Source: Escherichia coli
GTDB lineage: Bacteria > Pseudomonadota > Gammaproteobacteria > Enterobacterales > Enterobacteriaceae
Reading direction: 5' to 3' (one strand)
DNA: 64,000 nt
NCBI RefSeq assembly: GCF_030013205.1
Contig: NZ_CP122648.1
A program made the translations under genes and the position numbers. The notes under the pieces were generated by a model. It had not been told where the DNA came from, searched no databases, and saw only the letters and a program-made list of their open reading frames with translations. Numbering within the stretch: the first letter of the stretch is position 1; every line of letters starts with the position of its first letter. Below are positions 8,705 to 25,110 of the stretch, piece by piece.

Positions 8705-9156
8705 TATTTTTGTTCATCAGGTGATGATTAAGCTGGAAATCAATAATAGCGGATGTTGATGAATGTGGGGCGAAAGATAGATTGTTAAAATGTGCGGGTA
8801 ATGGGGAGAGGGTATTTGAAGGTGAAATATGCCACTAAGGCAAATGTTACGTTCACTTCCAGACTATAGCTACTTTGTCACTATTTTGCTGGTGAACGTG
8901 CCAGGGTGGCTCAGTCGCCACCACCCTGGCGACCCAGGCTTTTGGCACAAAATCGCCGCTACGCGGTACATTCGACTTATTTCTTACGGCTATCGGGTAC
9001 GGGCGCGAGGTAACATCCCTGTAAGACGCGCCCTCGCCGCGCATCCCTGCGCGTCGCCCCGGCCTTCAGAAAACGTCTCATCGATTTTCAGCCGGATTAA
9101 AACCATCGCTGCAATTGTTTTACTCACATGAGCATTATCTGCGCGGTTATCAATAT

Positions 9157-21944: not shown

Positions 21945-22126
21945 AGTTATTTAAGTATTTTCTAAATTAAGTAAACTCTAAACTAAAAATGCAACATATA
22001 CCAGCCTCAGCAGCGTAAATGAGAGTAAAAGCGTAGGCTGAAACTGGCAGGCTCCGCTAAAATTACTACGCTTAAGAGATAAAATCTCTTTTTAAACAAT
22101 GAGTAATTTTCTTATAGGGAGTACAT

Positions 22127-22285
22127 ATGGGTTTCTGGAGAATCGTCATCACCATCATTCTGCCGCCGCTCGGCGTGCTGCTCGGTAAAGGGTTCGGTTG
22201 GGCGTTCATTATTAATATTCTGCTGACACTGCTTGGCTATATCCCCGGTTTGATTCACGCGTTCTGGGTGCAAACCCGCGATTAA
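22127..22285 (+). CDS. yqaE: Small Pmp3/UPF0057-family membrane protein
   Basis: 52 aa ORF MGFWRIVITIILPPLGVLLGKGFGWAFIINILLTLLGYIPGLIHAFWVQTRD found by eye (below the ORF-track length cut-off); good RBS. Confidence 0.85.
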   Translation: MGFWRIVITIILPPLGVLLGKGFGWAFIINILLTLLGYIPGLIHAFWVQTRD

Positions 22286-22368
22286 ACTTGTGTTCACCCC
22301 CGCGGCGTTAACGCGCCGCGTTCCTCTGCTACACTTTCTGAGTGTTTCCGTTAACGAATGAGGTAGCT

Positions 22369-22818
22369 ATGGGTCTGTTCAATTTTGTTAAAGATGCCGG
22401 AGAAAAACTCTGGGACGCGGTTACAGGTCAGCACGATAAAGACGATCAGGCGAAGAAGGTGCAGGAGCATCTGAACAAAACCGGTATACCGGATGCCGAT
22501 AAAGTGAACATTCAAATTGCCGACGGCAAAGCGACGGTCACTGGTGACGGCTTAAGTCAGGAGGCAAAGGAGAAAATCCTTATTGCGGTGGGAAATATTT
22601 CCGGTATTGCCAGTGTCGATGATCAGGTGAAAACGGCGACACCAGCCACTGCCAGCCAGTTTTATACCGTTAAGTCTGGCGACACTCTGAGTGCCATTTC
22701 CAAACAGGTCTACGGTAACGCTAATCTGTACAATAAAATCTTCGAAGCGAATAAACCGATGCTAAAAAGCCCGGATAAAATTTACCCGGGGCAAGTGTTG
22801 CGTATTCCTGAAGAGTAG
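22369..22818 (+). CDS. kbp: Potassium-binding protein Kbp (BON + LysM domains)
   Basis: 149 aa from [14 protein letters not shown]…; C-terminal LysM. Confidence 0.9.
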
Positions 22819-23481
22819 TTAATTGCCAGCCATCGCCTGCTGAATAATGGGAATTGGCGTCAGTAAATGCTGGCGCATTAACTCACTGGCGCGCGCGGTA
22901 TCTCGCGCCAGTACCGCTGCAGTCAGGGTCTGGTGCTGATCGTGTTTATCTTCCAGCATTTCCACCGAAAGCACTGTTCGCCGCAGCCAGATAAATCGAT
23001 AGCGCGCCGCCAGATCAAACAACCGTTCACGCATTTGCAGCAAATAGTGAGAACCACAGCCCGCCACAATTGCCGTATGAAACGCCTGATGACGCAGATC
23101 CCACTCATCAAGCATTTTCTCACTGGCGTCACAGGCCTCAAGCTTACTGAGCAGATGCGCTTTTGCGAGAACGTCTGCCTCCCACTCATCCCCACCGCGG
23201 GCAATCGCCAGACTCACTAACATCGCTTCCATATTGGCGCGGGCGTCGAAAATATCGAGCAGCTCCTGCTCTGACATAGACGCCACCCGATACCCTTTTT
23301 GATTCACCACCGTGACCAGCCGTTCCGCCACCAGTTGCGAAAGAGCTTCCCGTAACGGCCCAACGCCAAGTGCATAACGCGATGTCAGCAAACTCATCCG
23401 TAATTTTTCATCCGGTTGAAAATTACCGCGAATAATATCGTTCTTCAGCCAGCGATAGCCATCCAGAGACGTAATGGTCAT
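22819..23481 (-). CDS. csiR: GntR/FadR-family repressor CsiR (GabC)
   Basis: About 220 aa from MTITSLDGY…; position downstream of gabP. Confidence 0.9.
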   Translation of the reverse strand: MTITSLDGYRWLKNDIIRGNFQPDEKLRMSLLTSRYALGVGPLREALSQLVAERLVTVVNQKGYRVASMSEQELLDIFDARANMEAMLVSLAIARGGDEWEADVLAKAHLLSKLEACDASEKMLDEWDLRHQAFHTAIVAGCGSHYLLQMRERLFDLAARYRFIWLRRTVLSVEMLEDKHDQHQTLTAAVLARDTARASELMRQHLLTPIPIIQQAMAGN

Positions 23482-23501
23482 GGTGTGACTCCTGATCATT
23501 A

Positions 23502-24902
23502 TCAGCGCGTATTATGAACGGGTGTTTTTTGCCACAATACCAGCTTTTTCCAGCGAGCCATAATTGGCACGGTACAGATAATCCCTATCGCTAATAAGCC
23601 GGTGGAGATCACTTCTAACTGTTGCGCCGGACGGAATAGCATCACTACCAACACAAAGGTAATAAAGCCGATGACCAGCCAGGTGAGCCACGGATAAAGC
23701 CACATTCGCAAGCGAATTTCGCTTCCTTCTGCTCGCAGAATTTTGCGCATCCGCAACTGTGAAACGGCGATGACTAAATAAACCAGCAGGGCGATAGCGC
23801 CGGAGCTGTCGATCAGAAATTTAAACACTTTCGCAGGCGCGTAATAATTCACCACCACCGTTAAAAATGCCGCACCGGTCGAGAGTAATACCGCCACATA
23901 CGGGGTTTTACTGCGGTTGATTTTACCCATTACCGCGGGAGCATCACCGCGACGGCTTAAGGAGTAGAGCATTCTGGAAGCGGTATACAGCGCCGAGTTC
24001 AGGCAACTGGTTACGGAAAGTAATATCACGCAGTCCATGATTAATTTCGCATGGGGAATATTGAGCAACTCCAGAACCGAGCGATAAGATCCAACGGCTT
24101 TCAGCCCCGGCATATTCCACGGTATTAATGCCACAACGACAAAAATAGAGCATAAATAGAAGATAGAAATACGCCAGATAACCGAGTTGGTGGCGCGGAC
24201 AATATGTTTTTCCGGCGTGTCGGATTCCGCGGCGGCAATGGTGACAATTTCTGCGCCCATAAACGAGAACATGGTGATCAACATCGCGCTTAATACCGCG
24301 CCGAAGCCGTTGGGCATAAAGCCGCCGCTATCCCACAATCTTGAGATCCCGCTCACTTCGGCATAAGGGTAAAAACCGCTAATTGCGACTGCACCAAGGA
24401 AAATAAAGGCCAGGATAGCGATGACTTTGCACAGCGCCAGCCAGAACTCAAATTCGCCGTAGTTTTTAACGCTTAATAAATTACTGCCAGTTAAGGCGAG
24501 GGTAATGACCAGGGAAAATAACCAGATGGGAATGCCTGGAACCCACGAGTGCAGGATCATGGCGGCGATGTTGGCTTCCAGCGGGATAACCAGTACCCAA
24601 AACCACCAGTACAACCAGCCGATGGTATAGCCCGCCCAACGACCAATAGCTTTATCTGCATAGGTGGAAAACGAACCCGTGTCGGGCGTGGCAACCGCCA
24701 TTTCCGCCAACATCCGCATAATCATAACCACCAGTAATCCGGCGAACAGATAGGCCAGTAATACCGCCGGGCCCGCTTCGGCGATGGCGACGCTGGAACC
24801 GACAAACAGACTTGCGCCGATAACACCGGCAATAGACAACATGGTGACGTGGCGTGACTTCAGCCCGCCGCCTAACTCATGTGGTTGCGATGATTGCCCC
24901 AT
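23502..24902 (-). CDS. gabP: GABA permease (APC family)
   Basis: 466 aa from MGQSSQPHELGGGLKSRHVTMLS…; ORF track extends 29 codons upstream. Confidence 0.95.
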   Translation of the reverse strand: MGQSSQPHELGGGLKSRHVTMLSIAGVIGASLFVGSSVAIAEAGPAVLLAYLFAGLLVVMIMRMLAEMAVATPDTGSFSTYADKAIGRWAGYTIGWLYWWFWVLVIPLEANIAAMILHSWVPGIPIWLFSLVITLALTGSNLLSVKNYGEFEFWLALCKVIAILAFIFLGAVAISGFYPYAEVSGISRLWDSGGFMPNGFGAVLSAMLITMFSFMGAEIVTIAAAESDTPEKHIVRATNSVIWRISIFYLCSIFVVVALIPWNMPGLKAVGSYRSVLELLNIPHAKLIMDCVILLSVTSCLNSALYTASRMLYSLSRRGDAPAVMGKINRSKTPYVAVLLSTGAAFLTVVVNYYAPAKVFKFLIDSSGAIALLVYLVIAVSQLRMRKILRAEGSEIRLRMWLYPWLTWLVIGFITFVLVVMLFRPAQQLEVISTGLLAIGIICTVPIMARWKKLVLWQKTPVHNTR

Positions 24903-25009
24903 CCTGAATCCTCTCGAAAGTGTGTCACTTGGGAGAGCGCCCCGACATTTCCCGCGTCGGGTCACGCGTGTAATTGAGACGGTCAACAAAATCTTAAAAA
25001 CGAAAGCGG

Positions 25010-25110
25010 GAGGGTTTTCTCCCTCTCCCTTAGGGAGAGGGCCGGGGTGAGGGTGTAGCCGCGTGATTACCCCTCACCCTAACCCTCTCCCCAGAGGGGC
25101 GAGGGGACAG
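25010..25110. repeat. Clustered imperfect palindromes in gabP-gabT intergenic region (REP/BIME-like)
   Basis: Three inverted-repeat units: CCCTCTCCC-TTAG-GGAGAGGG, GGGGTGAGGG…CCCTCACCC, CCCTCTCCCC-AGAG-GGGCGAGGG. Confidence 0.5.

Follow-up and report, generated by a model that had tools for sequence, protein, structure and literature searches.

A convergent BoxC pair in the gabT-gabP spacer of Escherichia coli

The repeat lying between gabT and gabP in the Escherichia coli DNA analysed here (a stretch of 64 kb, taken at its full length and called the window) is identified by the sequence of its units as a convergent, head-to-head BoxC pair made of one type A and one type B unit, and this explanation, taken as a whole and with the mechanism graded separately, is in our judgement highly probable. 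The feature is real but ordinary and already known, this BoxC copy having been catalogued before. A preliminary description of the same DNA had taken the feature for a repeat of the REP/BIME type; it is indeed a multicopy, intergenic and palindromic repeat, but exact unit matches place it in the BoxC family and not among the REPs.

The BoxC family, which belongs to E. coli and its relatives, was described in the 1990s, and the naming as PIT elements goes back to Hoyne and Maher (2000, 2002). Through a full-text search with the two 9-mers the repeat was traced to Holder et al. 2015 (PMC4666352), where the successive names BoxC, PIT elements and TM_ECO motifs are given, and to Kaplan et al. 2016 (PMC5100583), where the same elements were published as the G-quadruplex motifs HPG1 and HPG2.

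Locus, palindromes and identity of the repeat

The gab genes of the window all lie on the minus strand and are arranged as lhgO-gabD-gabT-(310-nt spacer)-gabP-csiR, with gene names taken from the annotation of a strain whose 151-nt element is 100% identical to that of the window. This annotation confirms the gene context originally given, namely the gap between gabT and gabP within csiD-lhgO-gabDTP, which is a single operon (PMC6265302). The inverted repeats that had been noticed there are present as three nested or adjacent repeats at 25021-25105, built of the blocks CCCTCNCCC / GGGWGAGGG and far beyond chance: GGGWGAGGG occurs seven times in the 64-kb window against 0.33 expected, and five of the seven are found within 25021-25091, while those at 8804 and 60561 are both isolated single blocks and were therefore put down to chance. 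The span of 25010-25110 first proposed does enclose these palindromes, but the palindromic region is wider (24994-25127) and an outer inverted repeat had been missed (Table 1). The gabP-side arm of this outer repeat is locus-specific, carries the T-run CGTTTTT on the mRNA strand and, in the alignment, is not conserved at the K-12 pairs. Folded as the mRNA strand, 24985-25135 (151 nt) reaches -85.7 kcal/mol (z = -9.1; 0 of 200 shuffles as stable), and a long hairpin is retained in all five other orthologous BoxC cassettes examined (-66 to -84 kcal/mol), the differences among these cassettes being concentrated in the apical spacer and the motif loops. A search of 22000-28000 against Rfam at a permissive threshold returned only eukaryotic miRNA and antizyme families, with E = 0.12-0.8 and far below gathering scores, which were rejected as artefacts of the long GC-rich hairpin.

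Table 1. Features of the gabT-gabP spacer and the adjoining genes, in positions of the window
Feature	Position	Strand	Remarks
gabP (GABA permease)	23502-24902	-	gene downstream of the repeat
gabP leader	24903-24976	-	common to both spacer alleles, nearly invariant between species; outside the repeat, marks the cassette boundary
Dimorphic 236-nt cassette	24977-25212	-	first base past the gabT stop codon up to CAATTA; made up of single-copy DNA adjoining gabT and of the BoxC pair with flanks
Outer inverted repeat	24994-25009/25112-25127		repeat search
gabP-side arm of outer repeat	24994-25009	.	partner 25112-25127; extends the hairpin to ~134 nt
Weak terminator-like site GGGAG-AAAACC-CTCCC, then GCTTTCGTTT	25008-25023	-	consensus scan
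Type B-side short flank, AGAAAAC on the minus strand	25014-25020	-	conserved among BoxC pairs
BoxC / TM_ECO type B unit CCCTCTCCCTTAGGGAGAGGGCCGGGGTGAGGGT	25021-25054	+	antisense in gab mRNA; contains HPG2 motif GGGAGAGGGCCGGGGTGAGGG
Perfect 10-bp hairpin CCCTCTCCCT/AGGGAGAGGG	25021-25030/25032-25041		repeat search
21-nt arms GGGAGAGGGCCGGGGTGAGGG / CCCTCACCCTAACCCTCTCCC	25033-25053/25071-25091		86% complementary, repeat search
Spacer between convergent units, 15 nt	25055-25069	.	apical loop of the long hairpin; most variable part among orthologues
BoxC / TM_ECO type A unit, one mismatched triplet, CCCTCGCCCCTCTGGGGAGAGGGTTAGGGTGAGGGG	25070-25105	-	sense in gab mRNA; contains HPG1 motif GGGAGAGGGTTAGGGTGAGGG
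Inverted repeat CCCCTCACCC/GGGCGAGGGG	25070-25079/25097-25106		repeat search
Type A-side flank GACAAAGTTAAAAACGACTGCGGACTGTC	25106-25134	-	partly conserved among BoxC pairs at unrelated K-12 loci
gabT (4-aminobutyrate aminotransferase)	25213-26493	-	gene upstream of the repeat

Both units show the exact block pattern of the BoxC/PIT/TM_ECO family, CCCTCNCCC-loop-GGGAGAGGG-loop-GGGTGAGGG. Written as the regular expression 5'-CCCTCNCCC-N(3-5)-GGGAGAGGG-N(2-3)-GGGTGAGGG-3', with TTA (type A) or CCG/CC (type B) as second loop, this pattern has exactly two matches in the 64-kb window, at 25021-25053 (plus strand, type B) and 25071-25105 (minus strand, type A); the comparison can be regarded as validated, because the same expression gives exactly the published start coordinates of ten paired K-12 units. 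For the type A unit the 23 motifs listed for K-12 in Table 1 of PMC4666352 include four identical copies, TM_ECO nos. 9, 16, 19 and 22, and the type B unit differs from no. 1 of that list by two bases in the first loop and by the last base. The type B 34-mer itself appears in the supplementary table of the same paper for E. coli IAI1 (no. 207) and 55989 (no. 237). That supplement uses no gene names, and the gab locus was found in it by sequence and by coordinates, those of no. 207 falling between gabT and gabP of IAI1, in a spacer with 6 differences from the window over 310 positions. One of the six hits the type A C-block, which is the probable reason why the catalogue gives the B unit alone for IAI1. 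K-12, the reference of the family, differs in having no gab copy: REP is found there instead, and the gab site lies outside the 23 K-12 sites. The gab copy also holds both published 21-mers verbatim, GGGAGAGGGTTAGGGTGAGGG of HPG1 and GGGAGAGGGCCGGGGTGAGGG of HPG2, as well as the conserved C-rich 5' flank that allows hairpin formation (PMC5100583). HPG1 and HPG2 are the same sequences viewed as G-quadruplexes; in gab mRNA only type A presents its G-rich strand.

The arrangement of the two units agrees with the family as well. All five K-12 pairs consist of one type A and one type B unit in inverted orientation (PMC4666352), and so does the gab pair, with B(+) followed by A(-); the same order is found at three K-12 sites, and fepB-entC is convergent too, as A(+)/B(-). 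The spacers of the convergent K-12 pairs measure ~16-28 nt against 15 nt at gab. When the gab copy was aligned with four K-12 pairs, partial conservation extended ~30 nt beyond type A and ~7 nt beyond type B, which would agree with the 56 bp first given as the length of BoxC (PMC2267715), and since the flank at 25106-25134 is partly conserved at unrelated K-12 pairs it belongs to the repeated element.

A search for further copies in the genome had been suggested earlier as a check, and many were found. Of 5426 complete E. coli genomes, 5413 have a BoxC unit, with a median of 18 places in each, so that the unit is not unique to this locus, and the listed strains with an identical gab copy have 23-28 BoxC places each. 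With 87028 chromosomal places and 50 on plasmids the family is, like the BoxC elements already published, a multicopy, strictly intergenic and chromosomal one with tens of copies per genome, and it is essentially absent from phages, where 6 weak records were found. In the plasmid collection several E. coli records are of multi-megabase size and are probably chromosomes under a wrong label. The same collection also gave weaker matches, mostly at 80-90% identity, on replicons of Sinorhizobium (58 records), Rhizobium (46) and Azospirillum (44), and for this reason similar G/C-block palindromic repeats seem to exist in alphaproteobacteria.

Two alleles of one spacer

REPs, the classic palindromic units, have a stabilising effect on upstream mRNA and are bound by IHF, gyrase and Pol I. 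The likeness to them is considerable, as the gab feature shares with REP/BIME elements the position between genes inside an operon, the multicopy, GC-rich and imperfectly palindromic character and the capacity for stable RNA hairpins, and a true REP cluster is found at the same position in K-12, O157, Nissle, E. albertii and E. whittamii. The two families nevertheless have no sequence similarity, BoxC being composed of three 9-nt blocks and REP of one 35-40-nt palindrome, and the copy number of BoxC is ~ten-fold lower. One survey counted 22 BoxC members, where 32 had been reported before, and 301 PU-BIME members, where the earlier figure was 485 (PMC2267715), and the median of 18 places found here is well away from the several hundred per genome expected of REP/BIME. 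None of six REP signature strings matches the window spacer, while two of the six, GTAGGCCGGA and CGGATAAG, match the K-12 spacer; a further signature, CGGATAAGGCG, is also unmatched in the window spacer. With no signatures, no homology between the spacers and units that match another named family exactly, the REP/BIME identity is refuted by the sequence, and we leave it next to no probability.

What the REP cluster represents is the alternative allele of the same spacer. In the alignment with MG1655 identity runs through the gabT stop codon and resumes at CAATTA, 74 nt upstream of the gabP ATG; between these points K-12, O157 and Nissle carry a 163-nt REP cassette that is non-homologous to the 236-nt BoxC cassette of the window. 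The latter cassette is present in 1304 of the 5426 complete E. coli genomes (~24%), among them B, BL21, IAI1 and non-O157 STEC, and essentially all others, including K-12, O157:H7 and Nissle, have the REP allele. The 95 nt of the cassette nearest to gabT (25118-25212) are single-copy and present only in these 1304 genomes, which indicates a locus-specific allele that contains a BoxC pair and not a bare insertion of one. Within this single-copy part, at 25143-25176, there are two 13-nt direct repeats 21 nt apart (CATCGTTATTATT and CATCGTTATCATT on the plus strand, AATAATAACGATG and AATGATAACGATG on the mRNA strand), which could be due to chance or could be a protein-binding site.

RNA of the REP allele is strongly folded too (-73.2 kcal/mol, z = -4.3), and the number of REPs in it varies between genomes. 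K-12 has the single 163-nt cluster, and long tandem REP arrays are found in strain 32F4, E. albertii and several other Escherichia (loci L003, L008, L011, L013 and L017); REP expansion, too, has a hotspot at the gabT-gabP site. The distance from the gabT stop codon to the first REP of the K-12 allele is no more than ~12 nt (L001, 3517-3560), and REPs within such a spacing were reportedly linked to translation effects by Liang et al. in 2015.

Ten gabT-gabP loci were recovered by a pattern scan of one genome per species. Among them, Pseudocitrobacter faecalis and a divergent strain that bears the label E. coli E69 have the BoxC allele; REP alleles were found in E. albertii, E. whittamii, P. vendiensis and three more Escherichia (two Escherichia sp. 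and one E. coli), with a REP-like unit at a more distant locus labelled uncultured Klebsiella MAG. The BoxC cassettes of P. faecalis and E69 are 92-94% identical to the window, the flanking coding DNA 91-94%; having diverged between lineages about as much as the flanking genes, the cassette must be considered old. That most relatives and the distant outgroup carry REP is a weak indication of REP being the older state. In P. faecalis DSM 27453 (L009, 4515-12096) a 7.5-kb block is 91% identical to window positions 22829-30374, which, going by the gene order of the window, is expected to be the csiD-to-csiR block. Beyond either end of this block, which covers only 22829-30374, the similarity is lost, and this suggests a horizontal transfer of the whole csiD-to-csiR cluster from one genus to another, BoxC spacer allele included.

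The 74 nt directly 5' of the gabP start codon are 96-99% identical among Escherichia species and Pseudocitrobacter, against 91-97% for the flanking coding DNA. This leader holds a CCCGAC/GTCGGG hairpin and a CTCTC...GAGAG hairpin overlapping the Shine-Dalgarno sequence, with two GGA motifs adjoining the ATG; it had no Rfam match in the scan of 22000-28000 and could be a translational control element.

Instability and the question of mobility

Several observations on the repeat and its relatives are in agreement with the "palindrome effect" of Holder et al. 2015 and with the association of the motif with local sequence variability and instability that they report (PMC4666352). One is the REP/BoxC dimorphism itself, another the decay of the type B unit, which is degenerate in E. 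coli B and SCU-113, and a third comes from the hrpB-mrcB pair, where in some strains a 64-nt deletion between direct GGGAGAGGG repeats has collapsed the pair to one perfect hairpin and in others the site is empty, with imprecise and non-alignable borders. At the DNA level the palindrome would be prone to form a cruciform, triplex or G-quadruplex when single-stranded, and this is a plausible reason why the site is variable among strains. In vitro a single strand forms a triplex or a G-quadruplex/hairpin and the duplex does not, the folds of type A and type B oligonucleotides having been shown by CD and NMR (PMC4666352, PMC5100583).

It could be supposed on these grounds that the activity of the feature is one of DNA, a transient intrastrand triplex, G-quadruplex or cruciform arising in replication or transcription and turning the site into a hotspot of deletion and replacement. 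This is the genomic-instability model of Holder et al.; it is compatible with the convergent BoxC pair as best explanation and draws on the behaviour of the oligonucleotides, the dimorphism of the gab site, the varying REP number, the decayed units and the hrpB-mrcB deletion. We nevertheless hold it to be unlikely, though well worth considering, because no stable triplex was detected by DMS footprinting in vivo (PMC4666352), because a cassette that has diverged about as much as its flanking genes is old and fairly stable here, and because REP sites are variable too, so that the variability may reflect a permissive intergenic site and not the chemistry of BoxC.

The same polymorphism bears on the possibility that the composite element is a MITE. 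An inverted-repeat symmetry over ~130-150 nt at many intergenic sites, flanks common to the copies beyond the triplex motif and the presence/absence polymorphism at hrpB-mrcB would all fit, and a comparable likeness exists to ERIC/IRU elements, which together with MITEs represent composite imperfect palindromes of ~130 nt that are intergenic, transcribed, enterobacterial and polymorphic for presence. The ERIC consensus is not known to be related to the BoxC sequence. At the empty hrpB-mrcB site, the one other locus examined, there is neither a target-site duplication nor a clean insertion border, and no empty allele at all exists at the gab locus in the census of 5426 complete E. coli genomes, so that neither locus presents the combination expected of a MITE, terminal inverted repeats with a target-site duplication and clean filled and empty alleles. 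We know of no cognate transposase for BoxC, and the family has no association with phages or plasmids. Single units are moreover commoner than pairs, 13 of the 23 K-12 units being unpaired (PMC4666352), and a MITE is in our opinion very unlikely.

Possible roles in the gab mRNA and their significance

Regarding the role of the convergent BoxC pair we are more cautious. It is possible, if somewhat short of probable, that the pair is a passenger structural repeat without a dedicated regulatory role, and, at the same tentative level, that it folds in the polycistronic gab mRNA into a near-perfect hairpin of ~100-130 nt, in which the G-blocks of type A would pair with the antisense C-blocks of type B and the flanks would close the stem. 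Such a hairpin would be a passive barrier to 3'-to-5' exonucleases, so that RNA from csiD to gabT would be modestly protected relative to gabP. By analogy with REP the BoxC hairpin may act as a modest barrier of this kind, and a stabilisation of mRNA by so strong a structure is plausible; according to published work on REPs, the REP cluster of the other allele is expected to act likewise as a decay barrier. To our knowledge no binding proteins and no RAYT transposase are known for BoxC, nor has an effect on mRNA been demonstrated. In the outer stem, compared over six orthologous copies, a number too small for formal testing, the substitutions in Pseudocitrobacter and E69 are not compensatory, a C-to-U change keeping a wobble pair and a U-to-C change breaking an A-U pair. 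Taken with the decay of type B in some lineages, this gives no sign of selection on the fold at the gab locus.

Negative reporter assays of PIT elements date from 2002. As summarised in PMC4666352, these elements behaved neither as promoters nor as terminators when tested with reporters and left RNA polymerase unaffected, and they block DNA polymerase in vitro with no effect in vivo. Of the two effects put forward in the preliminary description, stabilisation of upstream mRNA and attenuation of read-through into gabP, attenuation is the weaker half for this reason. If gabP were uncoupled from gabT by an intrinsic terminator or attenuator, this would consist of the large GC-rich hairpin closed by GCGG/CCGC and followed by UUUCGUUUUU on the mRNA strand; one terminator-like match is present at 25023-25008 on the minus strand, the copies of Pseudocitrobacter and E69 have kept the U-rich tract that follows the long hairpin, and Kaplan et al. 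suggested a terminator role for copies inside operons (PMC5100583). The scanned stem, however, is of 5 bp only, and the local minimum-energy fold forms the BoxC hairpin in its place; the full fold has the U-run base-paired within the outer stem. An efficient terminator would also silence gabP in about a quarter of E. coli strains, as no sigma-70-type promoter for gabP was found downstream. A consensus scan found no sigma-70-like promoter in the gabT-gabP spacer, and a gabP promoter inside the cassette was dropped as a candidate on that account. Termination is altogether quite improbable.

It could further be imagined that the gabT-gabP junction is under selection for some very stable hairpin of whatever kind. 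The BoxC pair and the REP cluster would then be interchangeable modules of mRNA punctuation, and their dimorphism, of long standing, would extend from species to species and go along with the 7.5-kb csiD-to-csiR cluster, into Pseudocitrobacter as well; we consider this improbable, if slightly less so than termination.

The BoxC family having been catalogued genome-wide in 2015 (PMC4666352), the dimorphism of REP and BoxC at one operon junction is only a mildly new point. For annotation it follows that BoxC pairs should not be labelled REP/BIME; PGAP leaves them unannotated. If the two cassettes were truly interchangeable, this would be the first demonstrated function of BoxC, as a decay barrier or translational decoupler equivalent to REP. 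The gab spacer, with the BoxC cassette in ~24% of complete E. coli genomes and REP in the rest, is a natural experiment which could be used to test for any effect of BoxC on mRNA.
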